Shown one piece after another: positions 1,628 to 33,032 of a DNA stretch of 54,377 nucleotides. Source of the stretch: an uncultured Methanosarcinales archaeon (GTDB lineage: Archaea > Nanobdellota > Nanobdellia > Woesearchaeales > UBA10216); the NCBI GenBank assembly GCA_964504135.1, contig CAZDCW010000005.1, positions 1 to 54,377 on the forward strand, written 5' to 3'. Position numbers and translations under genes: made by a program. The notes beneath the pieces are model-generated. The model was given only the letters and a program-made list of their open reading frames with translations. It made no database searches and was not told the origin of the DNA. The stretch's first letter is position 1. The number at the start of each line of letters is the position of its first letter.

Positions 1628-2176
1628 ATGAGCAAGAGGGAAATTAAGGTTGTTAACATTGTGGTTAGCACTTCTCTGAACCATGACATTCCTTTGGAGA
1701 AGATGGCTTCTACGCTTCCCAACACTGAGTATAACCCTGAGCAGTTCCCAGGGCTGGTTATCAGGATTAAGGAGCCGAAGACTTCTGCCCTTATTTTTAG
1801 CAGCGGCAAGGTCGTGTGCACAGGCGCAAGGTCCATGGACAAGGTTGAGGAGTCCATCAGGAAGATTATCAAGAGCCTTGAGAAGATAGGGATTAGGATA
1901 AGCATCAAGCCTGAGATTAACATTCAGAATATAGTTGCGTCAGGCACTGTCGGAATGGACCTTAACCTGAACGTGCTGGCCATGAAGCTCAGGAACACAG
2001 AGTATGAGCCTGAGCAGTTCCCTGGCCTGGTGTACAAGCTTATTGACCCTGACATCAAGGCAACCTTCCTCCTTTTCAGCAATGGGAAGATAGTCTGCAC
2101 TGGCACTAAGTCTGAGTCCGAGGTGAACAAGGCTTTGGACAAGCTTGTTGACAACCTTAAAAAGGTGAAAAGGTGA
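1628..2176 (+). CDS. tbp: TATA-box binding protein
   Basis: Two repeats of YxPEQFPGL...FSxGKxVCTG. The ATG at 1628 follows a G-rich SD. Confidence 0.98.
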   Translation: MSKREIKVVNIVVSTSLNHDIPLEKMASTLPNTEYNPEQFPGLVIRIKEPKTSALIFSSGKVVCTGARSMDKVEESIRKIIKSLEKIGIRISIKPEINIQNIVASGTVGMDLNLNVLAMKLRNTEYEPEQFPGLVYKLIDPDIKATFLLFSNGKIVCTGTKSESEVNKALDKLVDNLKKVKR

Positions 2177-5100: not shown

Positions 5101-8100
5101 CCTTCAGGCAATAAGTCATCTTTGCACTGTCTTGACAAAAAAATCCTGGGATATTCAAGAGCTACATTAGCCGCATTTATGGCTGGCGTTTTTGATGGCG
5201 ATGGAAGCATCAGGGAGAATCCTACGGAGGCAACTATAACGACAGGCATAAGGGAAAATGCTCAATTATTCCAGGAAATATTGCTAAGGTTCGGGATTAT
5301 TTCAAGTGTGGAAAAATCAACTCACAGCTGGCATTGCTCGATAAGGGGATTTGAGGAGGTAAGCAGTTTCTTTAAGCATGTGACCTTCCTTCACCCTGAA
5401 AAAATTGCCAAGAGCAATCTTTTGGCTGCCGTGGAGATTAAGGGAAGGATCGATGTCTTGCCCAACCATCAGGATTTCTTTAGAAGGCTTTTGAAAAGTA
5501 ATTCCGGCAGGCTTGGGAAGAATGTGTTCAGGTATTTTTGGAATTATTGTAAGACGAATGATGATTTGGGAAGGAAGCTTTCGGGCGATGTTCTCTGGGA
5601 TAAGGTGGTTTCAATTGAAGAGTTGCAAGAGGAATACGTTTATGATTTCACAATGGAGGGTACAAATAACTTTGTTGCAAATAACATAATAATGCATAAT
5701 TGTATCGATGAGCTGGACAAAATGAGCGAGGAGGACAGCGGAGCATTGCACGAGGCCATGGAGCAGCAGAGCTACCATCCTGATTTTGAGATTATGCTTG
5801 GCGACGGCTCAACTCACAGAATAGGGAAGCTGGTTGACAGCTTTTTAGATGCCAACAAGGATGGGATAATCCGGGGAATCAACTGCGAAATTCTGCCGGT
5901 TGAAAATATTGAACTGCTTACGACGGACTTTAGGAAGGTTTTCACGATTAAGGCTAAAAGGGTCTCCAGGCATTCTGCTCCTGACCACTTCATAGAGATA
6001 TCATTTAGCAACGGAAGAAGGATAACTGTAACTCCTGAGCACCCTGTTTACCTGTTCAGGGATGGAATCGCTGAAATCCCGGCAGAGCAGGTTCAGGTTA
6101 ATGACTTGTCCTTCGCTCCAAGGGTATTGCCTGTTCGGGAGGGATGTGGGGTTTCAAGGGAGCTTAGCAGGCTTCTGGGCTATTTGGTTACAGAAGGCCA
6201 CACTTACTTTAATGGGAAGCACAGGTATGCCGAAATAGGCATAAGCAATACGGACAGGAGGATAATAGATGAGTGTGGCCTTCTTTTTGAAAGGATTTTC
6301 GGCTGTAAGCCTAACATTAACCTTCAGAAAAAAGAGCGCAGGAAATGGGCTAAGCAGGACTTGTTTACAGTTAGGATTTCGTCATTGGATGCATATTCCC
6401 GTGTCAGGGATGATTTCCCTGAGCTTATGGTCAAAGCTCCCTTCAAGAGGGTTCCTAACAGGCTTAAGGTTTCTTCTTCTGAAGCTAAGAGGGAATTTTT
6501 GGCGGCCGCCTTTAAGGGTGATGGGTTTGTTGACTCCGAACGGTTCGGCTATATTACTTCATCTTACGGTTTGGCCAAGGACTTCCAGGACTTGCTTTTG
6601 GAATTCGGTGTTAACAGCTACATAGCGACTGAATCAAGGGCTGGCAGGAAATACTTCAAAGTAGTGGTTTCCTCCACTAAAAGCATGAATGCCTTTAAGG
6701 ATAAAATTGCTGAGCAGGATGACAAAAGGCTTGCAAGAATAGGGTTTTTGTGCGCCCGCAGCTCCAGGAAGTCAAACTATCGGGACCCTGTTCCGACGAT
6801 AATTTTGAAGCGGGTTAATGCATTGCTGAAGAAGCTGAGGCTTAGCAACGGATATTTCAACAGGATAATTTCTATGAACCAGAACTCCAATAGGGATATA
6901 GTGCTCAGGCAATTGGGAAGGGTGAGGCTGAAGCTGCATGAATGCGCCGCAGCTCTTTGTTCTGAATCAATCCGGGATGTCAGAAGGGGCAGCCTTACCC
7001 CACTGGCTGATGTGTTGAATGAAGTCGGGATTTCCTCGTCAATGGTTTATTATGTTGAAAAGCGGCCGCATTCGCAGATGCATTCTGAATTGCTGCAGAA
7101 AACCAGGAGCGTTGCTGGGAAGAGGCTTTCAGCAGTTGAAAATGAGCTTGGGCAGCTTTTGTCTATTGTAAAAAGCGATTTGAGGTTTGTCACTGTAAAA
7201 AGTGTCAGAAGAATTGAGAATGAGGATATAAGATGGGTTTACGATGTCACTGTTGAGCCTACAAAGACGTTTGTCAGTGAGGGATTGGTGCTTCATAACA
7301 CCCTTTCAGTTTCCAAGGCGAGCATCCAGTCCACCCTCCTTACCAGAACGACTGTCCTTGTCGCCGCCAATCCCAAGCTTGGCAGGTTTGACCCTTTCTC
7401 TGTGCTCGCGAGCCAGATTGACATGCCTCCGACTTTGATTAACAGGTTTGACCTGATTTTTCCGATTACTGATATCCCGAACAAGGCCAAGGATGAGAAG
7501 ATGGCGCAGCACATACTTTTTCTTCACCAGACGCCTGAGCAGATTGAGGCTGAGATTGGCACTGATTTCCTCAAGAAGTACGTGGCTTACGCAAGGCAGA
7601 ATATTAGTCCGGTCCTTACTGATTCAGCTCTTAACGAGATTAAGGACTTTTATGTGCAGATGCGGAGCCTGGGCATAAGGGAAGAGATTACATTCGGAAT
7701 CGGCGAGGGGCATGAGGTTCGCGCAATCCCGATTTCAGCCAGGCAGCTTGAGGCCCTGATAAGGCTCTCTGAGGCTTCTGCAAGGACCCGGCTCTCCCAG
7801 AAGGTCACTAGGGAGGATGCGCAGAGGGCTATTGAGCTTGTAAGGTACTGCCTGATGCAGGTTGGCTTTGACAGGAAGACAGGCCAGATTGACATTGACC
7901 GCATTTCAACAGGCATTCCTGCTTCTGAAAGGAGCAGGATTTATGCTGTCAGGGATATTATCAAGGAGCTGGAGTCCAAGATTGGAAACCTGATTCCTGT
8001 TGAGGATATCCTGAAGATTGCCCTGGACAAGGGCATTGCAGAGACTGACGTTGAGCAGCTTATTGAGAAGCTCAAGCGGGACGGTGACATTTATGAGCCA

Positions 8101-8127
8101 AAGCCGGGCTTTGTCAGGAGGGCTTAG
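2173..8127 (+). CDS. mcm: MCM replicative helicase precursor with three inteins (about 680 aa after splicing)
   Basis: Zn finger CPAC..CSC, Walker A GDPG/SGKSQ, Walker B C/CIDELDKM, AANP, NRFD and ARQLEALIRL motifs. Confidence 0.97.
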   Translation: MNVEESVRKYQEFIEDNYKAALLESVSTGKNFLVIDFAELSKFDPAMAEELLNSPEDSLKSAELACSQIDLPVQGSVRVRVSNLPEDRKLAIRTVRSEHLGRLLYIEGVVKKKGDVRPQVVSSRFECPACGQVMAVLQLDQSFREPAKCSCGRKGKFTLLSKEMVDAQSMVLEEPAENLEGSEQPKRLNLFLKEDLVSPLTEKKVNPGSRVAVVGILKEVPIILRSGGKSTVFDFLLEVNSISSSQEDFYDVKISREEQKRILELASDPKVYQKLTDAVAPSIFGYDKVKEALVLQLMGGVRKQRPDGMTTRGDVHVMLVGDPGCIAGDSQVALLYRGMQPISSLGEGHLQRINLVISKIRRNESDLPYDFATVFQHYRSQPVLRLVTETGKEVTCTYNQPFLTKEGWKRADELLLDEPIRVAPVIPNIVKKLAPTNFERVESHSGPLKEVSIPEFFTPGLASLCGYIIGDGNIHPNGYRLACYVNSEETDLIAIIQGLFRQEFNLEPSVFARKAGGIKTIVDGHQGLRQFVSRQQMHLVEVNSRQVAHSLSFLKEKRVPQAIFQSPKIVVSRFISWLFEADGCAFAKGRGRISVQLKSRSAGLLKDVQLLLLYFGIQSRIIQDNLCIRRSRDIGLFARHIGFNSAKKISALEKCLVAVRNRSSTQKRKGPQKWERVVRVMPAGITDVYDFEVPVTKMFIANGIVCHNSGKSQLLKRISRIAPKGRYISGKSVTGAGMTAAVVRDEFLGGWSLEAGALVLANNGICCTTGDAEFVTEDYKKIKFEDLFKDGEQVLFPKFKILGLNLKTNRIEAFPIKKAFRIKNSKKLVQVTTRTGRKLKLTEDNGLLLAKDSLFKWVAAAGISEGDFVAVPRNYGIDGSDCYDTDFAYICGLVATDGHIAIDKRHAQTSIYNSNAEIINNAVETLRRMKVKFSVFSRKPGGRSVIRGKEVITRKEVRQIINFQKAFAERIIDFGVPSGNKSSLHCLDKKILGYSRATLAAFMAGVFDGDGSIRENPTEATITTGIRENAQLFQEILLRFGIISSVEKSTHSWHCSIRGFEEVSSFFKHVTFLHPEKIAKSNLLAAVEIKGRIDVLPNHQDFFRRLLKSNSGRLGKNVFRYFWNYCKTNDDLGRKLSGDVLWDKVVSIEELQEEYVYDFTMEGTNNFVANNIIMHNCIDELDKMSEEDSGALHEAMEQQSYHPDFEIMLGDGSTHRIGKLVDSFLDANKDGIIRGINCEILPVENIELLTTDFRKVFTIKAKRVSRHSAPDHFIEISFSNGRRITVTPEHPVYLFRDGIAEIPAEQVQVNDLSFAPRVLPVREGCGVSRELSRLLGYLVTEGHTYFNGKHRYAEIGISNTDRRIIDECGLLFERIFGCKPNINLQKKERRKWAKQDLFTVRISSLDAYSRVRDDFPELMVKAPFKRVPNRLKVSSSEAKREFLAAAFKGDGFVDSERFGYITSSYGLAKDFQDLLLEFGVNSYIATESRAGRKYFKVVVSSTKSMNAFKDKIAEQDDKRLARIGFLCARSSRKSNYRDPVPTIILKRVNALLKKLRLSNGYFNRIISMNQNSNRDIVLRQLGRVRLKLHECAAALCSESIRDVRRGSLTPLADVLNEVGISSSMVYYVEKRPHSQMHSELLQKTRSVAGKRLSAVENELGQLLSIVKSDLRFVTVKSVRRIENEDIRWVYDVTVEPTKTFVSEGLVLHNTLSVSKASIQSTLLTRTTVLVAANPKLGRFDPFSVLASQIDMPPTLINRFDLIFPITDIPNKAKDEKMAQHILFLHQTPEQIEAEIGTDFLKKYVAYARQNISPVLTDSALNEIKDFYVQMRSLGIREEITFGIGEGHEVRAIPISARQLEALIRLSEASARTRLSQKVTREDAQRAIELVRYCLMQVGFDRKTGQIDIDRISTGIPASERSRIYAVRDIIKELESKIGNLIPVEDILKIALDKGIAETDVEQLIEKLKRDGDIYEPKPGFVRRA
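3145..4296 (+). mobile_element. Intein 1 in MCM Walker A, with LAGLIDADG endonuclease (384 aa)
   Basis: Starts CIAGDS and ends VYDFEV..FIANGIVCHN before Ser. Contains LCGYIIGDG and WLFEADG. Confidence 0.93.
4471..5700 (+). mobile_element. Intein 2 just before MCM Walker B, with LAGLIDADG endonuclease (410 aa)
   Basis: Starts CTTGDA and ends VYDFTM..FVANNIIMHN before Cys. Contains GLVATDG and AGVFDGDG. Confidence 0.93.
5770..7299 (+). mobile_element. Intein 3 after AMEQQ in MCM, Ser-initiated, with LAGLIDADG endonuclease (510 aa)
   Basis: Starts SYHPDF, has a TPEHP block B and ends VYDVTV..FVSEGLVLHN before Thr. Contains GYLVTEG and AAFKGDG. Confidence 0.92.
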
Positions 8128-9084: not shown

Positions 9085-9495
9085 ATGTTGGACTATAAGC
9101 AGCTTTTGGAGCGTGGAAGGGAGAAATTGCCTGAGAAGGTTTTGGAGACTTCCAGGTTTGAGGTTCCGAAGGTTCGGGGCCACATCCAGGGTAACCGCAC
9201 AATCATAAGCAACTTCCCCCAGATTGCTGACCTTCTGCATAGGCCGCCGGCGCACCTTCTCAAGTATATCCTGAAGGAGCTCGCAACCCCTGGTGAGGTG
9301 AGCAAGGGCCTTTTTATCATCGGGACCAAGATTTCTGCTTCAAGGATTAATGAGAAGATTGAGCAGTACGTTAAGGAGTTTGTTCTCTGCCCTGAGTGCA
9401 GGAAGCCTGACACAAAGCTGGTGAGGGATGACAAGTTCCTCTTCATCAAGTGCTCTGCCTGCGGCGCAAGGCAGCCGGTTAAGGTTAGGGTGTAA
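9085..9495 (+). CDS. eif2b: Translation initiation factor aIF-2 beta
   Basis: RFEVP..GNRTIISNF, LKELATPG and C-terminal CPECRKPDT..CSACGA. SD GGAG precedes ATG 9085. Confidence 0.95.
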   Translation: MLDYKQLLERGREKLPEKVLETSRFEVPKVRGHIQGNRTIISNFPQIADLLHRPPAHLLKYILKELATPGEVSKGLFIIGTKISASRINEKIEQYVKEFVLCPECRKPDTKLVRDDKFLFIKCSACGARQPVKVRV

Positions 9496-9528: not shown

Positions 9529-10236
9529 GTGAAAAAGGGCCAGGTTACGGTTTTTTTGATAGCTGCTGTGATAATCCTCCTTATAGGAGTCGCCTTTCTG
9601 CTTTATCTCAACAAGCCTTTCAGGTTTGCTGGGTCCGCCAGCGCCCAGGATGCGATTAACCGGTTTGTGTTGCAGTGCATTGAGAATACGGCGGCCAAGG
9701 GTGTTAGGGAGCTTGGCCTTCAGGGCGGCTATTATAGGCTTCCATCAGGGCATTTTGAAAAAGGCGATTATGGCATTCCGTACTATTTTGACAGGGGCGC
9801 TGATTTTTCCCCTTCAATAGGCACTTTGGAAAGCGAATTTTCAGACTATATGGACGACAGGCTGCCTGGCTGCGCTGATTTCAGCGAATTCGGGAAGCAG
9901 GGCGTTCTTGTTTCAGCCGGAAACCCCTCAACGTCAACAGGCATTCAGGCGAACAGGATTGTATTGAGCATCGCCTACCCTTTAACCGCGAGGGTGGGTG
10001 ACGAAACCGTTTCCTTGGAAAGCTTCAGCTATGAGCTTGACTCCAACTATGGCTTAAGTCATCAGGTCAGCAAAAAGCTTGCGGAAAAGCTGGTTAATGA
10101 CCCTGAGTACAGGGACTATACCTTCATCAACAGCCAGCCTCAGATTGTAAGCATCCTGCCGCAGCAGTCTTACACAGACATCTACATTGTTGTGGACAGG
10201 CAGTACAATTTCCTTTTCGCAGCGAGGTTCAGATGA
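9529..10236 (+). CDS. Membrane-anchored protein with class III (pilin-like) signal peptide
   Basis: MKKGQ followed by a hydrophobic stretch. Its extracellular module resembles the N-termini of the 28860 and 33033 proteins. ATGA-coupled to the giant ORF. Confidence 0.8.
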   Translation: MKKGQVTVFLIAAVIILLIGVAFLLYLNKPFRFAGSASAQDAINRFVLQCIENTAAKGVRELGLQGGYYRLPSGHFEKGDYGIPYYFDRGADFSPSIGTLESEFSDYMDDRLPGCADFSEFGKQGVLVSAGNPSTSTGIQANRIVLSIAYPLTARVGDETVSLESFSYELDSNYGLSHQVSKKLAEKLVNDPEYRDYTFINSQPQIVSILPQQSYTDIYIVVDRQYNFLFAARFR

Positions 10237-13200
10237 GACAGTTAGTGTGGCTGTTGTTTGTTCTTCTGCTTTCAGGCTTTGCCTCCGGAGCCGCCACTGT
10301 AATTCTGCCTCCTTCTGGCCCTGACGCTCCTGACGTGAAGCCGCCAGGTGGCTGCTCAGACTGCGTTGCAGGGACAATCTGTACGTCAGCCGGGCCTCCG
10401 GCCTCATGTCAGGCTGCTGAAACTGCTGACCTTGCCACAGTCCCTCCTGCCTTAATCAATTCCCAGATTTCTGCAATTCCTCCAAAGAAGCTTGAGGACA
10501 GCCTTGGGGACATTCAGGACCTTTCGCAGCTTAGCTCCCCTGAGGCGCAGGAGGCTTTGCGTCAGGCATTCCAAAAAAGGTATGGCATTCCTGTAACCAT
10601 TGACGCTTCAGCAGGCAGGGTTAGGGTTGTGAATGACCGGCTTTTCCGGCAGGGTTCTAGCATTGACTTGCCTTCGCTGAAGGATAACAGGGAAATCCGG
10701 AGTTTGGAGCTTACAACCGTCCAGGATGGCGCAGGCAGCCAGCTGGTCGCAAGGTACAGCTTGAAAACAGGCTATTATTTTGACGTTGTAGGCCAATTTA
10801 ATCTGGTTGCGGCAGATAATTATGGCCTGGTAATTGATGGCATTAATGCAAGATTCGCTGCAGCGAACGGTTACTACGGAGTTATTGATAATTACGTGAC
10901 CTCCAGAAACGTTCTCCTTAGTTTGGCTGGCAGTGAGGAAATCAGCGGCGACGCAAATTTCTTCAGGAATCCTGACAGCTCTCTTGACAGGTCAAGGCCT
11001 GTTAAGCTCTCAGGAACAAACAGCTGGGTGTGCGTTGATGACAAGGCCAAGTGCATGAGGAATCATCCGCTTAACGACTGGACATCCACTGAATCAGGGC
11101 CAGGCTCTGCTGACTGGATGGTGACTGAGGCCTGCTTCCGCTGCTCTGAGGACGAGGTATCCGGGCTTTCTGAGAGGCTGCTGGAAGGCCTGATTTATGG
11201 TTATACGTCCTGGACAAGGCAGCCGAATGCCCAGGGCATAGTGTCAGACTCATTGAACATGAGGGGATATGGAATATCGAAGTTCGGCGACGCGATTATC
11301 GAGGGCTCACATCTCAATGTTGATTTCACCGTTAATGATGACTCCGATACCAGTGGCGTGATGTTCAGGTTCCTTGATTCTAAGCTTGGGAGGGATGATA
11401 AGGCTGTGGGAAGGGTGGTCTCCTATGGAAGGAGCCTTGACCTGCAGTTTGAGTCTGACGGCAATGTTCATGCAAAGGAGAGGAACTTCCAGACCGAAAC
11501 AGCAGTTCCGCTGACCTCGCAGGGGTTCGTTAATAGCCTGCTGTTCGGTTCAGGGGATATTCTGCCTGCTGCTGTCACGCATTTCGGGGATTCTTCTGCC
11601 ATAAAAAAACTTGAGGCTGAAATAAGGACAACTCCCTTGGAGGCCCGTTCTGCTGACGTTAAGGCATACATCAGCCAGTCAAGGCCTGACCTGTTAGGCC
11701 AGCCTTTGACTGCAGCGCAGTCTGCCGAGCTTGACAGGGAGTTTCTGAAGGCTTACCTGGGCTACGAGTATGCGGCAGATTTTCTCAAAAGGCAGCCTAC
11801 GCTTGAGGAGGCATACCATTATGGCGAGTCAGTTCTCTCAGGGCTTTCCGGCAGCCAGAAAGCTGATGATTCCAAAAAACCGGTTGTCTTCAACCACCAG
11901 ACCTCAAAAGTCCTGCCGTCAGGAACAATGGTAAAGTTTGAGAACTTTTATTTCATGACTCCTGATTCTGTGGTGACAGGCCAGGGTGACATTGATTTTA
12001 ACTCGGCCCTCAGGCAGAAGTATGAGCGGGAAGTTATGCAAAGGGCGCTTAAGGATTCCTCTTTCCTTGCCTTGGCTCCTGAGGAGAGGGATTCCTACAT
12101 TCAGTCCGCTGTATCGCAGTATGAGCCCCTCATTTCCTTGGCGTCAAGGATGAATGAGCAGAGGCTTGTTGTGGAATACGTGGAAAACTCAGGAAACGTG
12201 GTGGGCGTTCAGGAGCTGAAGACTTCTGTTAAGGATGTTGGTGATAAGAGGCAGCTTGCCTACGCCCAGCTTGAGCATCTCCAGACAGTGCAGGAGGGTA
12301 TGGAGGAGGTGCTGCTGCAGTTGCAGCAGGGGAAGTCGCTGGTGGATATCCGGGAGAAGGCATCTGGAAAGGTTGAAGCGGCTTTCGGCGACCCTGCTTT
12401 GAATTATCAGTACAACCAGGAGCTTGCATCCAGGATAATTTCTGCAGGCAGGAGCTCAATTGAGTTGAACGGCCATACTTTCGACATCACCACTAAGGAG
12501 GGTCTTGCATCTTTCCTTGTTTACAACAATCTGGATGCAGCGAGGCTTTTTTATGGAAGGGGCAACTTTGAGGACGCTAGTTCGCACTCGCTGAATGCCC
12601 TGCAGTTCAGCATGAGCCCTGAGGACTTTGCAGAGTTCCTGAAAGTCCTTAGGCAAAACCCTGGAGTTTTCGGAAAGGTGGCCTCCTCCCCCGACGGCCA
12701 GTCAGGGTTCACCGCGTTCAGCAGGGACGGCTACGACTACCTTGTCCCTGACCGAATCAGGCTTATGGTCCAGCAGGGAAGGCTGAACCAGGACATTTTG
12801 AAGCAGTACATGGACAACAAGGCGGCGGTTGAAAGCAAGAACCTTCTGGTAAGCAATCCTGAAAAGGCCCTTGACTTCATACTGCCAAACGAATATTGGG
12901 AGGTAGCTGCAAATCTTGCCTTTGCCTCAAAGCCCACTGCTGTCGTTGTGTCTGCAGGAGGCAAGGTCATGCTGAGGAAGACTGTGCTTAAGCTCTCTGA
13001 GGAGGTGGGGAGGCTTGGCTTCAGCGGAGTGATTGGGTTTGACCTGCCGAGGGGCGCGCTTTCCGGAAATGCGTTGAGGGCTGCGGTTAAAGCATCTGAT
13101 GAGGATGCCCCCAGGCTTTCAAGAGGTTCATTTCCAGTACTTGACCCTGCTGCCGCTACAGGCTGTATTACATGCCGCCCCGACCAGGTGCTTGACTCTT

Positions 13201-16200
13201 CAAATCCTGCATTTGCCTTGCAGACAGAGCCGCGTGATAAGGGCCTTTTTGAAAGGCTGCTTGACCTTGTAAGGGGAAGGAAAAGCCCTGTTGCACCACC
13301 AGAGGCCCCTGGCGCTCCTGATGATTTGACCCTTTTCAAATTTTTGGATGAAGAACAGGTTGTTCCTCATCCAATTGACCCTCCTGCAAGGCCTGGCTCT
13401 ATTGATGAAGTTGTGCAAGCCTCCCAGAGGCGTGTGCCAGAAGCTCAGGATCCTGCTTACGTCGCTTCAGTAAGGTCAATGTTGGGCAGGAGTGAGGAAG
13501 ACATTTCCTTCATGCTGGATAAGTATATAGGCACTAACATAAAGCCACAGGTTGCTGCTGTAGTTAGGGACGAGCGCATGTGGCAGCAGGTGCTTGAACA
13601 CCTGAAGATACCCCCTACAGATGTTCAGAAGGTTGGGTTTGAGGAGCTGAATCCAGGCACATTCTCGCGGCCAATAAAGGTGACGGTTTCCGGGCAGGGT
13701 TTTTCTAAGGATTTTGTATTCAAGCTTCCTAGAGACAGTTATGTAGATCCTGAAGTCACTGAAAGGCAATTCAGGTATATGGCTGGAATGGCCAGGGCAA
13801 CGGATGAAAGGGGAGAACGGGCCGTAATGCAGCGAGTCTTGGCAGATCCTTTGTATTATGATTTGGGGTATCGTGGGCCTTCGGCGATTGTACCTGAGGA
13901 GTTCGTCCCGGGAAAGTTGGCTGGTTGGGCTGAAAGATATTATGAGCCTGCTGCCCTTGTGCACTCGCTGGGCAGCTTGGACGGCAGGCTGTGGGCTGCT
14001 TCCAGGCAGCTTGAGAATGGCGTGGAGACTGGCTTTGTTACCGTTGACAATTCTGCGGCTAACATAATTGTGGCTGAGTCTGAAAACGGCGAGGTTGTTG
14101 CGAAATACATTGACTCGGACATCAACCGCAACCACGTCATAATGGGCAATCTGGAGGACCTTGTGATTTACTCCATTCACACTAAATCCCAGAGGAATTG
14201 GCAGCGAAGGATCCAGCCTGATGATTTGGACGATTTTCTCTCAGGGATGCTGGAGCACCTTGGTGATAGGGATTCTGCCTTGCGGTCTTTTGCAAAGGCT
14301 GCTGACACTCTTGAGCAGGAAGCGCTGAAGGTTGAAAGCGAGCAGTGGCGCAGTGAAATGAGGGAGGCTGCAGGGAGGATAAGGGCTTTTGTAAAGAGGG
14401 AAGCTGCATCTGTCCGAGGCGTTTCCGGCCTTGGAGGTGGTGCGCCTGCCAAAGCGGGAAGGCCATTAACCAACAGGGAAGTGGCTGACATTGTTAAATT
14501 AGAAATACCGCAGGCCGCAGAACATCCGCATCTGGTACGCCTTGTCGCCAATGCGCAGACTGAAATAGACGCTTTTTACCAAGAACTGGCCGCGAAAATG
14601 GGCGGCGAATATTTCCCTGCAGAATCCTCTGATATCAGGCAACAGATTTTGGAGGTCAAGCCTCAGTTTGAATTTGCTTTCAGGGCTGGAACACCTGACA
14701 AAATGTCTGCGACAGTAACTTATGTTAATGCCGAATTACCTGGAATGTTAGTGGTAGGAACTAGCTCAGGAAGATCCTCTGGTAGAATTTTAGGAGAGAA
14801 TCAAGGATTTATTGTTAAGGGGCCAAACGGTAAATCGGAGGATACTGTTAGGCTTTACAGGGGGGTCATTGAATATGCTGCAGAACAACAATTACCCGTA
14901 ATAATTAGGAAACGGTATGCGACTGCTGAGGATATTGAAGGGTTTGTTAGGGGCTGGATTGACATCGGGACACTCTTAAGAAACCATCCCGACCGGGTTA
15001 GCCTTGTTTCAAAATATGAAAAAATAGCCCGGGAAAATCCTGAATGGTCCAAATTGGAAGTTGCCTTCAAAGCATTTCATTCATATTGCAGGGAGAATTT
15101 CGTGGGGTCGCTTGATTGCTCCGGGTCAATATTTGTTTCGGGTTCTGAGAAGAGTTCTGTAGCTGAAATGTATTCGTTATCTTCCCGAACTGGAATTATT
15201 TATGGAACTGAAGGAAGCAGAGGTATTAGGGGTGTGCTTATTCTTGATGTTCCCAAATCAAGGACGTTTGAACCATCAAGTGCTATTGTTAATTATAACA
15301 GTGATACTCGTAGTGAAACAGCCATAATCGGGGCTGTTGATCATGCATGGGTGCGAGGATTTGTGCCTAGCGAAGGGTTGGAGAGTAATGCTGCTGGTTT
15401 TCAACAGCGAATCACCATTGCAGAAAAGATTATCGATGAATTGGACTCCGCCAGCGACCCTCTGGGTGCCGCTATATCGGTTATGCTGGCAAACAGCGGC
15501 CTTTCAAGAGCGCTGGAGAGGAATATCGGGACAAACATCAGGTCTCAGGTGGAGTCTGTGCTGTCTGACAGCGGCGCCTGGAGTCAGGTGCTGTGGCATC
15601 TCGCCGTTGAGCCTGGTGATGTGGCGAGGATTGACGTTCAGGAGCTAACGTCTGGCTTTTACAAGAATCCCTTTAAGGTGGAACTGTTCCTTCGCAACGG
15701 GGAGAGCAGGAGTTTTGTCTTCAAGCTTCCAAGAGACAGTTATGTAGATCCTGAACTCACTGAGAGGCAATTCAGGCATATGAAGGATTTGGATGGCTCT
15801 GGAGTTATGCAGAAAGTCATCGGCGGCCAGCCGGTGTATGTAGATCTTGGCGGTGATTTGGGAAGGCGGCCCATTATTTTTGAGGAGTATGTTCCGGGGT
15901 ACACGGCAGAGAAGGCATTGACTGTTTATGGCAAACGGCCTGTTATGGTGTCATTGGGCGACCTTGATGGAAGGTTCTGGGCTGCTTCCAGAAGCGTTGA
16001 GGATGGCATGGTAACAGGCCTTGTCAACAAGAACAATGGATTAGATGATATCATTGCAGAAGAAAAGTCTGGCGCTTTGGTTTCAAGGTATGTTGACTCA
16101 GACGTTGATTTCGTTTCACAGGGCGGGATAGATGAATTGGTGATTAAAGGCTTATTTCACAAGAATTTCGAGTGGCCAAGGATAATGCCTGATTACATCG

Positions 16201-19200
16201 ATGCCTATCTTTCCGCAATGCTCCCACACCTTGGCAACCGGGAATCTGCCCTTCGCGCATTCATATCCACTGCTGACAGGATTGATTCAGAGGCGTTGAG
16301 GCCTGTTAACAAGGATTGGAAGGCTGGCATGCAGGATGCCGCGGGCAGGATTAGGAAGTTTGCCACTGACAGGCTGGAAATTAAGGAATTCGTGGCTGCG
16401 GAAAGAAGGGCCGCAAAAGTTGTATTGTTGCCTGGCACGCCAGTGAACTTGCCAGCCAAACCTGCAGAGGTCAGGGATGATGCCTACGCGCTGCTCGGCC
16501 ACCTTTCAAGAGACTCGGATGCGTGGAAGCCAGTCCTTGCAAAGCTCGGTGTTAAGCCTGAAGATGTTTTGAAAGTGGATGTAAGAACTATGGCTGAGGG
16601 TGGAACAAAAATAGCCTACATCGTTAGTCTTGATTTGAAGTCGGGTGAAAGGAAAAGCTTCGTGTTCAAGACTTCTAATGGAAAAAATAGGATTCTGGAA
16701 GGTGAATACTCTGCCTTGAAAAAGGCTGAAGGGTTCAATGTCGGCCCAAGACAGCTTACAGATTCCCCCATCGTGGCTGAAATAGCAGGGGGTAAGTCGG
16801 TTCTGCTGCTTGAGGAACTCGTAACTGGCTACTCGCTTGATGAGGCAAAGCTGACTGTCCCGCCTGATGAATTATATCGGGCAATGGGCGAGCTTGATGC
16901 CCGCCTGTTTGAGGCCGGAAAGACGTCAGAGTACGGAAGAATCAGGGGCTTCACCTATAATGACTACAGGTCGGCCAATGTCCGGTTTTATGATGATGCT
17001 GGAGAGGGGCTTGTTGGAAAATTTGTTGAGTTGGATGTAAGCACATCATCGATTGATGATTTTTTTGGCGCAAATTACTTGTTTAGTGTACCTCCTGAAA
17101 ATTTGAACGCATACCTGAAAGGCTCATTTTCTGTTCTGAAGGATAAGCGCAAAGCCCTATCCAGCCTGGCTGGCCTGGCCGACTATTTTAGCTGGAAATC
17201 ATCTTATATGGCCGAAAACGTTGCGCAAATAAAAAAATTCGTTTCAGAGTATGCTGCCTCAGAGGGGATAACATTGCCTCCAAGAAGGCAATCCATCCCT
17301 TCAAAAGCTGAGCTTCGGGAAGCTGTTATGGGCAACACTGCAGACCCGTTGGCGGCAGACATTGTGGCCCGGGCCTACACTGACATGTACTCTGCTCGCG
17401 TGAAATTGGCCAGCAGTTTTAATGGACGCTACGTTCTTCTTGACGGAAACATCATTGTTGACGATGCAGTCGAAACCGGTGGCAGGCTGTCTGATGCCCT
17501 GAAAAGGGCGGATGTCAAGGCAAAGGAATATGCTGAAACGGATAAGGATGCTGTTGTTAAGGTGGTTCCCAGTGTATCCTATGGCGAGCAAAATAGTCCG
17601 GAAAAGATAACCGTCCTTTTGACTTTTGCTGAAAAGGCCACTGGTAAAAGATACGATGATGCCTTTTTCGGGGAGGTTGTCCTTAACAATATGGCTGGTT
17701 ATGGGGCTGTGGAATCAGCCGGTGCAAAAAGGGGGGAAGTCAGGCTGTTTATGGGAATAGGCGGCGATCCATCTCAGGTGCAGAAAGCCGGAATCGTGGC
17801 CGCGGGTTATGCGACGACAGATGACATCCGCAGGTTTATGGATGGGAAAGCAGGCATAGAAGAACTGCTGGGGAAGCATCCTGAAAAGGAAAGCTTGGTG
17901 AAACGGTTTCACAAGGTTAAGGAAGAGAACCCCGGCTTATCTGACAGCGAAGCCGCTTACATGGCATTTACAAGGAATTGTGCTTGGGCGGGGGGTTGCC
18001 ATGCGAGCATTTTTGCATCTGCTTCCTCTGACCCACAAATGAGTGCTTTTTATGAACAGTTTGGAGGGCAAAAGGCCAGTTGGATTTTGGTCATGGACAT
18101 ACCTAAAAGAGAGGTTCTTAATGCAAAAGAAATAGGGAATTTTGGAGAATCAGAAATGGCTGTTGCTGGCGAGATTTCTCCTCAGTGGATCAAGGGATTC
18201 GTGCCCCGTAATGTAAGGTACGCTGATATGGATACAATGCTTCACGCCTTCGATGCGCAGGTCACGTCAGGGACGACTGTGGTTGTGGCTTCAGAAGGCG
18301 TGGTAAGGGAAGTCCCCTTTGACGCAGAGAAGCTGACTTCCAAAGCCCAGTTTATGGTTTACGGCGAAAATCACAAGGCGAATATAGTTGGCCCGCCTGG
18401 GACTGTTTACGACATTGGCGACGGAGTTTTGTTAAGGCCGGGCGAAGTGTTTGAGCTTTCCGAGGAACAATATGCATCCCTCAGGAAGGCCGCTCCTTAT
18501 GACCTTGAGGTTAGGGGGTTTGGTGTGAGTATGCCCATCACTGAGGCAGAGTATCGGGCCATTATCGCTTCTGGAAAGTTTGAGACTTTAGTTGACAGTG
18601 GCGATTATGTGGTATATGTAACTGAGGGGTTGGAGCTTCCTGGGGGCAGAAGGCTGTCGGCTGGGTCTGGTGACAGGATTTGGGTGGGTTTGGGCGAATA
18701 CATCTCTGTGATGACCAAGGGGATTCGGCCAAATCTCGAATCTGTGTCGAATGGAGTGACCATGGCCCTGAACAGCCATGAATACGCTTTGTTAAAGGTT
18801 CGCAATTACTTCCATGAGGGGGCGTGGATTAACAGCCCGAAATTCAGCGATTATAAGGAGGGCTGGAAGATTCATGTAACCGCTGCTCAGGATGATATCG
18901 CCATGCTTGAGGATGCCCTTCTTCCATACCTGAGGCAGAAAAGGATTACGCATAAGGTCATGATAGCTTCCCAGGTTCCGAAATACAGGGGGACGACTCA
19001 GGAGGGAAAGGTTGTCGCAGTGTTTCTTGGAAGCGGGCCTGATGCTGAAAGGATAGTCGAGGAGATGGATTCCCTTATTGCTGCAGAGCTGAAGAATTCC
19101 GGTAAGCTTGCTAGGGAGGAGCTCCCGTATGGCGGAAAGTCAGGAATGATTTCGTACAGGTATGCGAATCATAAAGGCTATTCAATTGTTAACCCTGATA

Positions 19201-19313
19201 ACCCTGATGAGAAGGTGTTTGATGATGTTATCAGGGAGACCGGCTGCATTCCGCCTTGGATTAAGTTTGACCTCAAGGGAAAGGCCAATACAAATCCCTG
19301 TCCGGTGGCTTAA
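10233..19313 (+). CDS. Giant secreted multidomain protein (3 kinase-like, 2 ADP-ribosyltransferase-like and 1 phospho-Ser/Thr lyase-like domains); candidate toxin/effector
   Basis: Uninterrupted 3026-aa ORF with an N-terminal signal peptide (MRQLVWLLFVLLLSGFASGA); domain motifs are detailed in the findings. The CDS is solid, the function is inferred. Confidence 0.8.
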   Translation: MRQLVWLLFVLLLSGFASGAATVILPPSGPDAPDVKPPGGCSDCVAGTICTSAGPPASCQAAETADLATVPPALINSQISAIPPKKLEDSLGDIQDLSQLSSPEAQEALRQAFQKRYGIPVTIDASAGRVRVVNDRLFRQGSSIDLPSLKDNREIRSLELTTVQDGAGSQLVARYSLKTGYYFDVVGQFNLVAADNYGLVIDGINARFAAANGYYGVIDNYVTSRNVLLSLAGSEEISGDANFFRNPDSSLDRSRPVKLSGTNSWVCVDDKAKCMRNHPLNDWTSTESGPGSADWMVTEACFRCSEDEVSGLSERLLEGLIYGYTSWTRQPNAQGIVSDSLNMRGYGISKFGDAIIEGSHLNVDFTVNDDSDTSGVMFRFLDSKLGRDDKAVGRVVSYGRSLDLQFESDGNVHAKERNFQTETAVPLTSQGFVNSLLFGSGDILPAAVTHFGDSSAIKKLEAEIRTTPLEARSADVKAYISQSRPDLLGQPLTAAQSAELDREFLKAYLGYEYAADFLKRQPTLEEAYHYGESVLSGLSGSQKADDSKKPVVFNHQTSKVLPSGTMVKFENFYFMTPDSVVTGQGDIDFNSALRQKYEREVMQRALKDSSFLALAPEERDSYIQSAVSQYEPLISLASRMNEQRLVVEYVENSGNVVGVQELKTSVKDVGDKRQLAYAQLEHLQTVQEGMEEVLLQLQQGKSLVDIREKASGKVEAAFGDPALNYQYNQELASRIISAGRSSIELNGHTFDITTKEGLASFLVYNNLDAARLFYGRGNFEDASSHSLNALQFSMSPEDFAEFLKVLRQNPGVFGKVASSPDGQSGFTAFSRDGYDYLVPDRIRLMVQQGRLNQDILKQYMDNKAAVESKNLLVSNPEKALDFILPNEYWEVAANLAFASKPTAVVVSAGGKVMLRKTVLKLSEEVGRLGFSGVIGFDLPRGALSGNALRAAVKASDEDAPRLSRGSFPVLDPAAATGCITCRPDQVLDSSNPAFALQTEPRDKGLFERLLDLVRGRKSPVAPPEAPGAPDDLTLFKFLDEEQVVPHPIDPPARPGSIDEVVQASQRRVPEAQDPAYVASVRSMLGRSEEDISFMLDKYIGTNIKPQVAAVVRDERMWQQVLEHLKIPPTDVQKVGFEELNPGTFSRPIKVTVSGQGFSKDFVFKLPRDSYVDPEVTERQFRYMAGMARATDERGERAVMQRVLADPLYYDLGYRGPSAIVPEEFVPGKLAGWAERYYEPAALVHSLGSLDGRLWAASRQLENGVETGFVTVDNSAANIIVAESENGEVVAKYIDSDINRNHVIMGNLEDLVIYSIHTKSQRNWQRRIQPDDLDDFLSGMLEHLGDRDSALRSFAKAADTLEQEALKVESEQWRSEMREAAGRIRAFVKREAASVRGVSGLGGGAPAKAGRPLTNREVADIVKLEIPQAAEHPHLVRLVANAQTEIDAFYQELAAKMGGEYFPAESSDIRQQILEVKPQFEFAFRAGTPDKMSATVTYVNAELPGMLVVGTSSGRSSGRILGENQGFIVKGPNGKSEDTVRLYRGVIEYAAEQQLPVIIRKRYATAEDIEGFVRGWIDIGTLLRNHPDRVSLVSKYEKIARENPEWSKLEVAFKAFHSYCRENFVGSLDCSGSIFVSGSEKSSVAEMYSLSSRTGIIYGTEGSRGIRGVLILDVPKSRTFEPSSAIVNYNSDTRSETAIIGAVDHAWVRGFVPSEGLESNAAGFQQRITIAEKIIDELDSASDPLGAAISVMLANSGLSRALERNIGTNIRSQVESVLSDSGAWSQVLWHLAVEPGDVARIDVQELTSGFYKNPFKVELFLRNGESRSFVFKLPRDSYVDPELTERQFRHMKDLDGSGVMQKVIGGQPVYVDLGGDLGRRPIIFEEYVPGYTAEKALTVYGKRPVMVSLGDLDGRFWAASRSVEDGMVTGLVNKNNGLDDIIAEEKSGALVSRYVDSDVDFVSQGGIDELVIKGLFHKNFEWPRIMPDYIDAYLSAMLPHLGNRESALRAFISTADRIDSEALRPVNKDWKAGMQDAAGRIRKFATDRLEIKEFVAAERRAAKVVLLPGTPVNLPAKPAEVRDDAYALLGHLSRDSDAWKPVLAKLGVKPEDVLKVDVRTMAEGGTKIAYIVSLDLKSGERKSFVFKTSNGKNRILEGEYSALKKAEGFNVGPRQLTDSPIVAEIAGGKSVLLLEELVTGYSLDEAKLTVPPDELYRAMGELDARLFEAGKTSEYGRIRGFTYNDYRSANVRFYDDAGEGLVGKFVELDVSTSSIDDFFGANYLFSVPPENLNAYLKGSFSVLKDKRKALSSLAGLADYFSWKSSYMAENVAQIKKFVSEYAASEGITLPPRRQSIPSKAELREAVMGNTADPLAADIVARAYTDMYSARVKLASSFNGRYVLLDGNIIVDDAVETGGRLSDALKRADVKAKEYAETDKDAVVKVVPSVSYGEQNSPEKITVLLTFAEKATGKRYDDAFFGEVVLNNMAGYGAVESAGAKRGEVRLFMGIGGDPSQVQKAGIVAAGYATTDDIRRFMDGKAGIEELLGKHPEKESLVKRFHKVKEENPGLSDSEAAYMAFTRNCAWAGGCHASIFASASSDPQMSAFYEQFGGQKASWILVMDIPKREVLNAKEIGNFGESEMAVAGEISPQWIKGFVPRNVRYADMDTMLHAFDAQVTSGTTVVVASEGVVREVPFDAEKLTSKAQFMVYGENHKANIVGPPGTVYDIGDGVLLRPGEVFELSEEQYASLRKAAPYDLEVRGFGVSMPITEAEYRAIIASGKFETLVDSGDYVVYVTEGLELPGGRRLSAGSGDRIWVGLGEYISVMTKGIRPNLESVSNGVTMALNSHEYALLKVRNYFHEGAWINSPKFSDYKEGWKIHVTAAQDDIAMLEDALLPYLRQKRITHKVMIASQVPKYRGTTQEGKVVAVFLGSGPDAERIVEEMDSLIAAELKNSGKLAREELPYGGKSGMISYRYANHKGYSIVNPDNPDEKVFDDVIRETGCIPPWIKFDLKGKANTNPCPVA

Positions 19314-28859: not shown

Positions 28860-31800
28860 TTACCGGGCAATACATTTTCCGTTAGCAACTCCCCCCCAGC
28901 CATCACATGCCAACCCATCAAGACATTTTGGCATATTAACCCCCAAGAAGAACTTGCATGGCTCATTGAGCCCTGGCCTTTTTTGGCAGGTTCCGTAGCG
29001 GCCTGCAATGGCATCTTGCACACATTCAAACAATTCAGGGTCTGAACAGTCTGGCAGGGTATATCCGCATTTCTTGCCTTCCCTGCTGCGCATCTTCTGC
29101 TTGTATTCTTCACCATCAGGAGCGCATGTGCCTGTGTTTGACCTGTCCAAGTCCACATGACAGGAAGTCCCGGGATTGTCAGGGTCTGCTGATAGACTGC
29201 AGCATCGTACGCCTTGTCCAAGAGTACATGGTTCGCCTATGAGGAAGCATTGGCGTACTGCATTGTTGGTGCATTCCTTGTTTGTGGCAGCCTTATCAGG
29301 GCATAAGCATTGCTGCACGCCTGCTTTTGTACTTACACAGGCATTTCCATATTGGTCGCAATATACTGAAGTTCCAGCTTCCCCTGCTGGCTCGCAGCTT
29401 ACATAACCCTTTATCCAGTTTCCTGTCACTGGGTCTTTTTTGCATAGGGAATCCTTTGCGGGATCTGGTTCATACATCACTTTAGGTGTCTGTGGGCATT
29501 TCGGCACAGGTTCTTCACAAACGCCAAATTTATTGCATAAGCCCAGCTTGCTGCAGTCCTTTTTATACCAGTTGTATCCCTTTTGGGTGGTTTTGCACAG
29601 GAGGGACATGCCTTGCAAATCGTTTCTCTTAACCATTGGAATATCTGTTGCAGGCGTATTTGTCCCTGGTATGTTATCTTTAGATCCGCCGCATACATAC
29701 AAAGTGCTTAGGGGGCAAGGTATTTTGGCGGCATCAGCGATTTCAACGTACCCGTAAGGGATTCCTGCTAATTTCGGCGGCTTTACAGGGTCAGCCTTGC
29801 ATTGTCCATTATCGCAGCCGTTCGGGCATGGAGAGGCGTCCCTCGTGCCAGCCGCTTGTCCGGTGCAGTGTATGACATACCCGTTATTATTTCCCTGGCC
29901 GCAGACCTTGTCGTTGGCAGACTTGCCGTTGCACTCTGTAAGGGCGGCAGGGGGCGGCACTGCTCCAGGCGGTTGCGTTCCCGGTGGGGCTGCTCCGGGT
30001 CCAGGGAGAGTGGGCTGGCTTGGCGATGCTGCGCATTGGGCATTCTCGGCGCCTTGGGTTGGTTTCACCATTACACATCCATGCTCGCAGGGCTTTTTCT
30101 GTCTTATACCCGGGTTTTGTAAGCAGGGGATTCTTTTGGGGTCTGAGCATGGAGGGCCGCATTCAATTATAAAGTCGTGGTTGCATCCTGAGCCGCAGTA
30201 GTTTTCAATAAGACCGCTGTTCCTGTAGTTGTCCTTGCATTCGTTAAAGTCTTTTTCTCCAGAGGGGGGCGATGGGCATACGGCAGAATCGCATTTTCCG
30301 TTGTTGCAGATGCTGTCAGGCGGGCATTTCTCTGCAACGCCCAAATCGCCTGCGCCAGAGCATGTGATTATGCTTTCAAAATTGCCGCTGCAAGCCTTGT
30401 CTGACTTCTTCTTATTGGAGCACTGCTTATCGTAGCCTATCAGCGGCCCGCTTGCCTTGCAGTCGTTCACCGGCTTTTCGCATCTTGCACCTTTTGCAAG
30501 GGCGTTGAAGAAGTGCCGCTTAATTATAGTATTTCCTGCGTTGTCTTTCTGTGTTGCGCAGCCTTTTGAGAAGGGGTCTGTTTCTTCGCTCCACTTTAAT
30601 TGGTCGGATTCGTATGTTCCTGTAAACTTCCAGCTAGAGGGGCATAATGCTTCGCATAGAGTGATTACTCCCTTATTGTCCGTTCTGGCAACGCAGGCTT
30701 CGTTTTCATTGCAGGCTCCCTTGGCGGTTTCCTTTGCTCCCTGGCAGCGATAATATGCCTGTGTTTGGCCTATACTGTCGCAGTACAATCCATCATTCTT
30801 CCCCTCGCACCTGTTTATGCATTTCCCGTCCTTGCAGCTTCCTGGGCAGTGCTCCGTAAAGTAGCCTTCATTTCCATCGCCCGTGCATTCAAACGTCCAT
30901 GTTTTTTTGTCTTGTTTAATTTCATCAACGCATACCATGAGTCCTGGCTCTGCTGAATTGCATTCATTGATGCCATGCACGTTACGACTTCCCGGCACAC
31001 CGATACACCTGCCAAGCAATTTGACGTTGACCAGTAAGTCATTCACGTCATCCTTGCATGCTACCGAGCATTTCCTCTGGGAAACCATGCCCTGCTTTCC
31101 ATTGCCCAGGCATCTTATTACGTATCCGGCATTCTGATTCTGGCCGCATATCTGCACAGTAGAAGTTGCTTTTTCATGAGGCGCGCATTCAGTTAGCTCT
31201 TCCGCAGCTTTATAGCCCTTTACAGTGCCTGGTGGAGCCGCAGGTGGCTGTGTTCCTGGTGGCGTTGGCTGGCCAGGCTGTGCTGGAGTGGCCGGTTCAA
31301 CACCGCAGCCTGCGAGCAGCGCTGCCTTTCCTTCAGGATTGACCGCCTTGCCTTGCAGGGCCTTGCATTTTGAGTCCGGGTTGTCGGCTGCTATGAAGTC
31401 ATTCCCCTTCTTCTCGCGGCCAGTGTACACGCCTATGTAGTTGTAGTTGTTGACGCAGCTTATTGTCTCGCAAAGCGCTCCATCCTGTTTTACAACATCA
31501 GGATAAACCCTTCTGGGCCATCTGTAATCCCTAATCTCGTAGCATTTATCAATTGGACAGCATGCAGCAACTTGCTGGTCATTGGACACGTCATTCCCGG
31601 CTGAGTCTTTAGTCTTCTCCTGGCCTGCATACGCCTTTCCGAAGGGGCCAATCAACCCTTTTCTCTCATGTGACTTTGCGCATTCCTCAGGCACAGGTTT
31701 TGCTTTGCATAATGGCTGGCCATTGATTTCCTCACATTCTCCTGAGCAGCTAAGAGCGGCTCCGTTTATGTCCTTGGAAAGGTCCTTCTGGCACATTATT

Positions 31801-32950: not shown

Positions 32951-33032
32951 TTATTGATTTAAGGCAAAACGAGCTTTTCAATGAGGCCAAAGGCAGGTAA
33001 GTTTTAAATACCAAGCCAATTAAATGTTCAGG

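Follow-up and report, generated by a model that had tools for sequence, protein, structure and literature searches.

Phosphoserine/phosphothreonine (pSer/pThr) lyases are known from two settings, as type III effectors in a few pathogens and as domains within lanthipeptide synthetases. The first includes OspF (3I0U), SpvC (2Q8Y, 2Z8O) and VirA, phosphothreonine lyases of enteric pathogens. The second includes the LanKC and LanL enzymes (ThurKC 8SAM/8SAO/8SAP, CuvL 8CAR, SalKC 9UGQ and PneKC 8W7A), in which the lyase is the N-terminal part of a lyase-kinase-cyclase chain of ~850 aa. A lyase of the same fold is also present in HopA1 (4RSW) and in the class V system LxmK-LxmY (9DK1-9DK3), which has a kinase of the aminoglycoside phosphotransferase (APH) type and not of the Hanks type, and whose two components are separate small proteins complexed on a peptide substrate. 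Here, a LanKC/LanL-type lyase domain is described at the C-terminus of a 3026-aa archaeal protein, P0001, encoded in a stretch of 54,377 nucleotides (the window; contig CAZDCW010000005.1, positions 1-54,377, assembly GCA_964504135.1) from a member of the Nanobdellota (GTDB lineage Nanobdellota; Nanobdellia; Woesearchaeales; UBA10216). The genome is small and archaeal, with an assembly of 1.37 Mb that is 92% complete.

Here it is proposed, as a reading given a little better than an even chance, that the giant protein is a multi-enzyme effector array and that its last module is an active pSer/pThr lyase acting on the phosphoproteins of another cell. The proposal draws on sequence, on predicted structure and on analogy with the described systems.

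Identification of the lyase domain

A short series of motifs near the end of the chain had been taken, in a sequence-only reading of the DNA, as the mark of a LanKC/LanL-type lyase, and the family hidden Markov model (HMM), the predicted fold and the catalytic residues all agree with that assignment. The motifs GWKIHV (from nt 18861, G2877), THKVM (K2908), QEGKVVAVF (K2926) and ISYRY (R2976) lie where they had been placed, in the frame of the same open reading frame (ORF) that holds the whole lyase domain, and the series is far from chance expectation. The range first given for the domain, 18820-19313, covers most of it; the folded domain starts earlier, near nt 18765 (aa 2845).

Membership in Pfam RamC_N (PF25816) was taken as a score above the curated gathering cut-off of 27 bits. 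The last 187 aa score 37.0 bits (E 3.2e-9), the whole 3026-aa protein 30.1 bits, and a six-frame search of the genome gave 35.6 bits at 18846-19184, which is the sole match in the assembly. At E <= 10, the only other Pfam family on the domain is SchA_CurD, sub-threshold at E 0.2. The NCBIfam models for LanKC (NF038151, 22.4 bits, cut-off 575) and LanL (NF038150, 15 bits, cut-off 650) match the lyase part only. The database record of the giant protein already carries PF25816; the bare domain call is automatic knowledge already, and the new part is the setting.

Identity to the solved enzymes is 13-20%. A single-sequence search of the PDB with the last 215 aa found only ThurKC, at a non-significant E of 1.4, so a profile search was needed. 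The profile built from the domain and 39 shorter relatives retrieved LanKC lyase domains at E 5.8e-27 to 1e-13 (9wj0_A 5.8e-27, ThurKC 8sao_B 7.2e-26, CuvL 6.5e-17, PneKC 7.5e-15 and SalKC 1e-13), and all 12 distinct PDB sequences at E <= 1 are LanKC-type. No sequence-level match to OspF, SpvC or HopAI1 was found by Pfam at E <= 10 or by this profile search.

The AlphaFold2 model made from the same alignment has a mean predicted local distance difference test (pLDDT) of 92.1 and a predicted TM score (pTM) of 0.87, and is confident over the active-site strands. Likeness to the OspF and LanL lyases, the lack of which had been named beforehand as grounds for refutation, is evident in this model. 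In VIA-align comparisons, the lyase domains of CuvL (8car_A, Z 17.7, 170 residues, 2.5 A), ThurKC (8sam_A, Z 16.9, 166 residues, 3.1 A) and SalKC (Z 15.4, 169 residues, 2.9 A) were followed by SpvC (2q8y_A, Z 10.7, 149 residues, 3.1 A), HopA1 (Z 10.5, 145 residues, 3.7 A) and the class V lyase LxmY (9dk1_B, Z 10.3, 126 residues, 3.0 A), with eIF4E as the first unrelated fold (Z 7.9, 105 residues, 3.3 A). Foldseek also ranked ThurKC at the top (E 2e-8), with SpvC at 8e-4 and OspF (3i0u_A) at 1.9e-3. Residues ~2845-3026 are a genuine member of the LanKC/LanL-type (RamC_N) pSer/pThr lyase family.

Catalytic residues

The catalytic residues were placed by profile alignment to ThurKC (E 7e-26; Table 1). 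Six of them (K2879, H2881, K2908, K2926, E2963 and R2976) occupy positions that are kept in 83-88 of the 88 relatives described below, and in the alignment with the 39 shorter relatives K2908 and K2926 are invariant, with G-x-K-x-H and R-Y near-invariant. The Glu that stands for Asp at position 2963 is also found in 48/88 relatives. The spacing from the His to the following Lys is 27 residues, identical to ThurKC. A seventh residue, R3001, is probably the counterpart of the second ThurKC/SpvC Arg; like the consensus Arg of the alignment, it precedes a conserved P-x-W by six residues, in a column that aligns poorly among the relatives. The archaeal domain has in common with LanKC/LanL the catalytic K-x-H, the Lys, the G-K, the acidic residue and the R-Y, and with OspF/SpvC an equivalent Lys/His/Lys/Arg set, mapped via ThurKC. 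SpvC differs in having R148 where the archaeal domain has K2926, and there is no evidence in the archaeal lyase for the pT-x-pY mitogen-activated protein kinase specificity of OspF/SpvC.

In the part of the ThurKC study concerned with the active site (Hernandez Garcia and Nair 2023, PMC10604976), mutation of each of K65, H67, K94, K117, D152 and R163 abolished or impaired dehydration, and the K-x-H pair has the roles of phosphate contact and general acid. The same part describes a ThurKC loop with K108 that adjoins the DF(G/E) motif of the kinase domain. This loop is an insertion relative to the RamC_N relatives found here and is absent from the archaeal domain. From the conserved residues and the confident model, the C-terminal domain is probably active.

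Relatives of the lyase domain

An exhaustive HMMER search with aa 2840-3026 against 1.84 billion representative proteins (E <= 0.001) returned 88 proteins besides the query, with a best E of 3.2e-14 and identities of 22%-38%. RamC_N is recognised by Pfam in 87 of them, the exception being P0050, which has no family at E <= 1e-4. LanKC-type enzymes (RamC_N with Pkinase and LANC_like) account for two, P0072 and P0084, at ranks 72 and 84. The other 86 are without a Pfam kinase domain, and none of the 88 has repeats like the kinase-like ones of the giant protein, from which it appears that members of the family generally act on phosphosites made by other kinases. By HMM envelopes and a rule of 80 flanking residues, the domain is C-terminal in 31 relatives, essentially alone in 37, N-terminal in nine and internal in 11.

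Among the C-terminal cases, four have an N-terminal eCIS_core (DUF4157) domain of extracellular contractile injection systems (eCIS) (P0015, P0035, P0046 and P0066), and in two the partner is PT-HINT (P0048 and P0076). Further partners of RamC_N include Metallophos, DnaJ, Annexin, HEAT, EF-hand/LysM and a methyltransferase. Six relatives combine RamC_N with FHA (P0026, P0031, P0057, P0071, P0087 and P0089). FHA is a phosphothreonine-binding, or reader, domain, and these fusions would have a reader-plus-eraser architecture, of which we know no earlier description. A quick IQ-TREE was made with the 89 domains, the careful tree search being unfinished, and in it the six FHA fusions form a single clade (95% support in the SH-like approximate likelihood ratio test, SH-aLRT).

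Across 401 genomes sampled from the phylum, RamC_N was found in four at E <= 0.001, two of them above the cut-off, the present genome included. A genome of the same order (G047, contig C5) encodes a 1060-aa protein (L040 2557-5739, - strand) with a C-terminal sub-threshold RamC_N match (17.8 bits, aa 887-1004). The gene directly downstream of it (L040 1424-2317, - strand) is for a caspase/legumain-like peptidase (Peptidase_C13/C14).

Kinase-like and ADP-ribosyltransferase-like repeats

Self-comparison and alignments of the giant protein revealed three paralogous repeats, K1 (~aa 1071-1407), K2 (~1740-2076) and K3 (~2094-2317), and two repeats of another kind, A1 (~1519-1712) and A2 (~2483-2658). 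Identity is 40-49% between K1 and K2, 25-33% between K3 and either of these, and 30-33% between the two A repeats. An assembly artefact as the origin of the giant ORF was excluded by these merely 25-49% identities at the protein level and by a 9-kb frame without a stop. The proposed order of modules, on a lineage-specific N-terminal module, is K1, A1, K2, K3, A2 and lyase. A PHROGs search of segments of the protein gave nothing useful.

The sequence-only reading had placed kinases in the same chain as the lyase and had suggested that the two together dehydrate Ser/Thr of target proteins. The three repeats exist, with no Pfam kinase match at E <= 10, and are probably kinase-like. K1 and K3 carry in order an invariant Lys (FVFK), an invariant Glu, D-x4-N and a later invariant Asp, a series that we take to be the beta3 Lys, the alphaC Glu and the metal-binding Asp of kinases. 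In K2, Asn replaces the catalytic-loop Asp and Asp replaces the Asn, and this repeat may be an inactive pseudo-kinase within the array. The language-model neighbours of K2 are RIO, APH, Kdo and choline-kinase clusters (score 0.93-0.95, recognition 3102). Foldseek with the low-confidence K1 model, which was made from a three-row alignment and is poor (pLDDT 58), gave the kinase fold in 33 of the 37 matches listed, with APH(3')-Ia first (E 0.022) and none at E <= 0.001; VIA-align with the same model returned helical bundles only, the best Z of 8.4 being meaningless. Alignment by hhalign to six APH ORFs of related genomes put the N-lobe in register at E 0.048, and the global mode gave nothing. 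No kinase family was matched in NCBIfam, and a profile of the three repeats found no kinase among PDB sequences. Searches for relatives of the K repeats were also negative: a word-index search with K1 among candidates of 217-693 aa found none, a whole-protein search with region 1061-2672 among candidates of 1664-5296 aa found only the protein itself, and pattern scans of genome contigs and metagenome contigs found none. Taken from motifs and models, a kinase-like fold for the K repeats is quite probable; activity of K1 and K3 is considerably less so.

A coupled protein dehydratase, in which the K repeats phosphorylate Ser/Thr of a target and the lyase eliminates the phosphate so that lanthipeptide chemistry serves as a toxin, would follow the way of working of LanKC/LanL. 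The residues kept in kinase order in K1 and K3, the RIO/APH neighbours of K2, the kinase-fold matches of K1 and the hhalign register to APH all speak for it, and if the repeats are APH/RIO-like the nearest precedent would be class V, where a HopA1-like lyase on a chain of its own is paired with an APH-like kinase (as outlined in part of PMC10604976). Against this coupling stand the family searches and poor K1 model given above, as well as the distance between the modules. The lyase begins ~470 residues past K3, with A2 and a further stretch in between, whereas lyase and kinase are contiguous in LanKC. The archaeal domain also lacks the K108 kinase-contact loop, and the relatives are kinase-free in 86/88 cases, with 6/88 fused to FHA. 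The class V parallel is itself limited, as the archaeal modules lie far apart in one chain with no evident peptide substrate. The prediction of a complex between K3 and the lyase (score 0.00, mark 0.32) speaks neither for nor against binding. Of the earlier suggestion, then, the lyase part stands, and coupling to the kinase-like repeats is possible but is not supported by the gap, the missing loop or the kinase-free relatives; overall this explanation is considered unlikely.

The A repeats resemble ADP-ribosyltransferases (ARTs) in an Arg / Ser-x-Ser / Glu series, which is a lead only. The triad Arg is kept in A1, which however has R-S-E, and is replaced by Met in A2, which retains E-S-E. Among the language-model neighbours of A2 are NarE, Scabin, Pertussis_S1 and Lart1 clusters (0.89-0.91, with a low recognition of 1822). 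No relatives of the A repeats were found by sequence searches that included 41 related genomes, and their profile matched nothing among PDB sequences. The most far-reaching form of the coupled model, a self-sufficient protein-dehydrating weapon of a DPANN archaeon in which APH/RIO-like kinases and the lyase act on the proteins of a partner cell and the ART-like modules add a second covalent insult, is likewise a doubtful possibility.

Genomic setting and the variable cassette

The genes around the giant ORF encode PCNA, TBP, an intein-bearing MCM, eIF2-beta, the PolD subunits DP2 and DP1, and Cdc6, and the locus is an archaeal replication/translation neighbourhood and not a cluster for ribosomally synthesised and post-translationally modified peptides (RiPPs). 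Directly upstream, a 235-aa partner protein (P0090) overlaps the giant ORF (Table 1). The sequence-only reading had seen no cyclase or precursor peptide nearby, and this is borne out: the neighbours are housekeeping genes, no LANC_like turned up in the 92%-complete genome, and no precursor peptide was seen near the gene, small precursor ORFs not having been searched systematically.

A genome of the same genus (G001) has a PolD DP2 that is 97% identical. On either side of the two genes its DNA is 95-98% identical to the window, with nothing matching between window positions 9495 and 19310. In this place it holds an inverted two-gene cassette (contig C4; L006 413-6721). One gene encodes a 235-aa protein with 36% identity to P0090, the other a protein of 1707 aa that matches only aa 34-936 of the giant ORF, at 28.8% identity (tblastn). 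The K, A and lyase modules are absent from this cassette, and neither of its proteins has a Pfam family. The slot between eIF2-beta and PolD DP2 is hypervariable, invertible and fast-turning.

Of 41 related genomes, the K profile and the A profile each match one, the present genome (G000) only, and the N-terminal module is present in five, G000 included. The P0090 family has eight matches in the genome, some within large ORFs, including the 1292-aa ORF of the window, and its members may specifically accompany giant surface proteins, as partners or as modules for their handling. The picture that these sequences suggest is that of a conserved scaffold, made of the partner and the N-terminal module, to which ~2000 residues of enzyme-like modules unique to this strain are joined.

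Residues 3-27 are the sole hydrophobic segment of the giant protein in a Kyte-Doolittle scan. Judged by eye, with one Arg, a Leu-rich core and then small residues, aa 1-27 are signal-peptide-like and would be an export signal or an anchor.

In polymorphic toxins and eCIS cargo (DUF4157, PT-HINT), a conserved N-terminal part is joined to an enzymatic C-terminal part that differs from one close strain to the next, as here, and the C-terminal toxin position is taken by lyase relatives in 4/88 and 2/88 cases, respectively. In the part of Geller et al. (2021, PMC8213781) on this domain, DUF4157 is an N-terminal marker of eCIS, with the toxin domain C-terminal; the word 'lyase' is absent from the main text of that article. 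Polymorphic toxins differ in having a trafficking or pre-toxin domain and a downstream immunity gene, and no trafficking, pre-toxin or autoprocessing domain was recognised by Pfam in the giant protein. The stop of the giant ORF overlaps by four bases (19310-19313) the stop of the convergent PolD DP2 gene, which directly adjoins it, so there is no intergenic room for a terminator or for a downstream immunity gene, and none is found 3' of the ORF.

Other large genes were also observed in the window. The MCM helicase gene (2173-8127, + strand; 1984 aa) has intein splicing and LAGLIDADG domains in three matched stretches each, and hence carries several inteins. Two divergent giant ORFs, one of 1292 aa with no Pfam family (28860-32738, - strand) and one of 1565 aa with a single CARDB (33024-37721, + strand), are probably further surface proteins.

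Table 1. Positions of the modules and catalytic residues of the giant protein, and of its partner family (window numbering unless a contig is given)
Feature	Position (nt)	Strand	Basis or remark
235-aa partner protein P0090	9529..10236	+	One N-terminal membrane helix; no Pfam; stop overlaps giant-ORF start by 4 nt
Giant ORF (P0001), 3026 aa	10233..19313	+	ORF calling/translation; 19-mer hydrophobicity only at aa 3-27
Signal-peptide-like or anchor segment, aa 1-27	10233..10313	+	Kyte-Doolittle scan
N-terminal module, aa 30-1060	10320..13412	+	No Pfam; common to large proteins of few relatives
K1, probably kinase-like	13437..14600	+	FVFK Lys aa 1164, D1272-x4-N1277, Asp-x-Asp 1294-1296
A1, ART-like (lead only)	14598..15440	+	RLYRG, SIFVSGS, RSE
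K2, probably kinase-like	15444..16484	+	Catalytic-loop Asp/Asn positions read N1934, D1939
K3, probably kinase-like	16497..17444	+	K2146, D2244-x4-N2249, D2268
A2, ART-like (lead only)	17499..18248	+	RLFMG, SIFASAS, ESE
Stretch between A2 and lyase domain	18249..18764	+	Sub-threshold only: DUF7210 E 0.011 (Pfam), phrog_933 E 0.017
LanKC/LanL-type (RamC_N) pSer/pThr lyase domain, aa 2845-3026	18765..19310	+	HMM, predicted fold, profile alignment; Pfam core aa 2873-2984 = nt 18849-19184
K2879-I-H2881	18867..18875	+	ThurKC K65/H67, SpvC K104/H106; K in 87/88, H in 84/88 relatives
K2908	18954..18956	+	ThurKC K94, SpvC K136 (presumed base); K in 88/88 relatives
K2926	19008..19010	+	ThurKC K117, SpvC R148; K in 87/88 relatives
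E2963	19119..19121	+	ThurKC D152, SpvC D201; acidic in 86/88 relatives
R2976	19158..19160	+	ThurKC R163, SpvC R213; R in 83/88 relatives
R3001	19233..19235	+	Tentative counterpart of ThurKC R191 / SpvC R220
P0090-family matches in the present genome (G000)	C28:3489-4175; C40:4075-4641; C7:11383-11919; C4:17456-17881; C1:17660-18268; C5:32298-32471

Proposed function and alternative explanations

The results above show the family of the domain, its predicted fold, its kept catalytic residues, the lack of a lanthipeptide context and the strain-specific modular build of the protein. The effector reading goes further and infers that the domain is active and that the protein is exported and delivered into a target cell as an effector, and infers the identity of the substrates, in the following way. 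The giant protein would be exported and its lyase module would reach the cytoplasm of another cell. There, K2879, K2926, R2976 and R3001 would hold the phosphate of pSer/pThr, K2908 would take the alpha proton and H2881 would protonate the leaving phosphate. The product would be dehydroalanine or dehydrobutyrine, and the site would never be rephosphorylated, as with OspF/SpvC. The idea of an exported lyase that inactivates the phosphoproteins of another cell is common to OspF/SpvC, which have a type III secretion context not seen here, and to this proposal, and for the multi-enzyme chain the comparison is with the MARTX-type multi-effector arrays. The secreted toxin of the sequence-only reading is in this sense plausible, given the N-terminal hydrophobic segment, the variable cassette and the C-terminal position of the lyase in the eCIS_core and PT-HINT relatives.

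Several points weigh against an effector. Neither a device for translocation nor a processing protease nor an immunity gene was recognised. As ATP, NAD and phosphoproteins are lacking outside a cell, the model needs a delivery route. The GC content of the gene (0.48-0.52) is the same as that of the window, with no compositional sign of recent transfer, and the kinase-like and ART-like labels of the other modules are unproven. Within its family the domain has the lowest score, 37 bits against 40-140 for most relatives, and in the quick tree it lies on a long branch (1.71) without well-supported near neighbours. A split with 96% SH-aLRT support separates it from all six eCIS_core and PT-HINT proteins; on its own side are the FHA fusions, two DnaJ-containing giants and the two LanKC enzymes. 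The analogy with toxin cargo therefore appears to hold at the level of the family and not through close kinship.

A function other than that of a weapon is somewhat less probable than the coupled dehydratase. The protein could act on the envelope of the archaeon itself or on partner-surface proteins, or in adhesion or regulation at the contact site, with the lyase editing phosphoproteins of its own cell. The further giant ORFs of the window, the recurrence of the N-terminal module and 235-aa partner as a lineage pair, and the lack of an immunity gene after the giant ORF would fit such a role, and the relatives that are essentially alone (37/88) and cytoplasmic-looking, or fused to FHA, suggest endogenous signalling for part of the family. 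On the other hand, kinase, ART and lyase chemistry needs cytoplasmic ATP, NAD and phosphoproteins, and an export-type segment stands at the start of the chain. Nor can the cargo part be a core function, since the same-genus genome and 40 other relatives lack it.

It is very unlikely that the lyase domain is a dead relic, or a mere phospho-peptide binder kept for structure. The lowest family score and the long branch would suit a dead domain, and the loss of canonical catalytic-loop residues in K2 and of the ART-triad Arg in A2 indicates that decay occurs within the chain; six of the seven residues of the catalytic set are nonetheless confidently aligned and unchanged in kind, with the Asp-to-Glu change shared by 48/88 relatives and the seventh probable, and the model is confident over the active-site strands. 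An unusual lanthipeptide or RiPP pathway dehydrating a small precursor peptide is hardly credible, although all characterised RamC_N members in the PDB are lanthipeptide synthetases, since neither Pkinase nor LANC_like was recognised by Pfam in the protein and LANC_like is lacking in the window and genome as well, the flanks are replication and translation genes, which together rule out a lanthipeptide synthetase, the chain begins with an export-type signal, and synthetases are only 2/88 of the relatives.

Implications for the lyase family and for DPANN archaea

The effector array remains the reading favoured here. The novelty lies in the setting, with a LanKC-type lyase at the very end of a giant, putatively exported archaeal protein that also has kinase-like and ART-like repeats; this C-terminal position of the lyase differs from that in LanKC/LanL. 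Most of its close relatives appear, from their domain composition, to be kinase-free modules in toxin-like or FHA-linked architectures. In the part of Khater and Mohanty (2014, PMC4159009) on the distribution of these enzymes, BLES03-like lyases are reported in archaea, and the SpvC- and LanL-like ones are contrasted with them as restricted in range. In the open-access literature searched, no paper was found that joins 'phosphothreonine lyase' with 'polymorphic toxin', the eCIS/DUF4157 papers listed there do not use the term 'phosphothreonine lyase', and no relevant paper names RamC_N or PF25816.

These observations point to a third setting for pSer/pThr lyases, that of a LanKC-type domain circulating on its own or at the C-terminus of other proteins, in most cases with no kinase or cyclase. 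The archaeal module is small (~180 aa), confidently folded in prediction and provided with clear mutational controls. If active, it would be a concrete, assayable candidate for the manipulation of partner cells by DPANN archaea and would represent a new class of irreversible anti-phosphorylation effectors. Should the coupled weapon prove true, lanthipeptide chemistry would have been turned from peptides onto proteins and would have passed from bacteria into an archaeal episymbiont.

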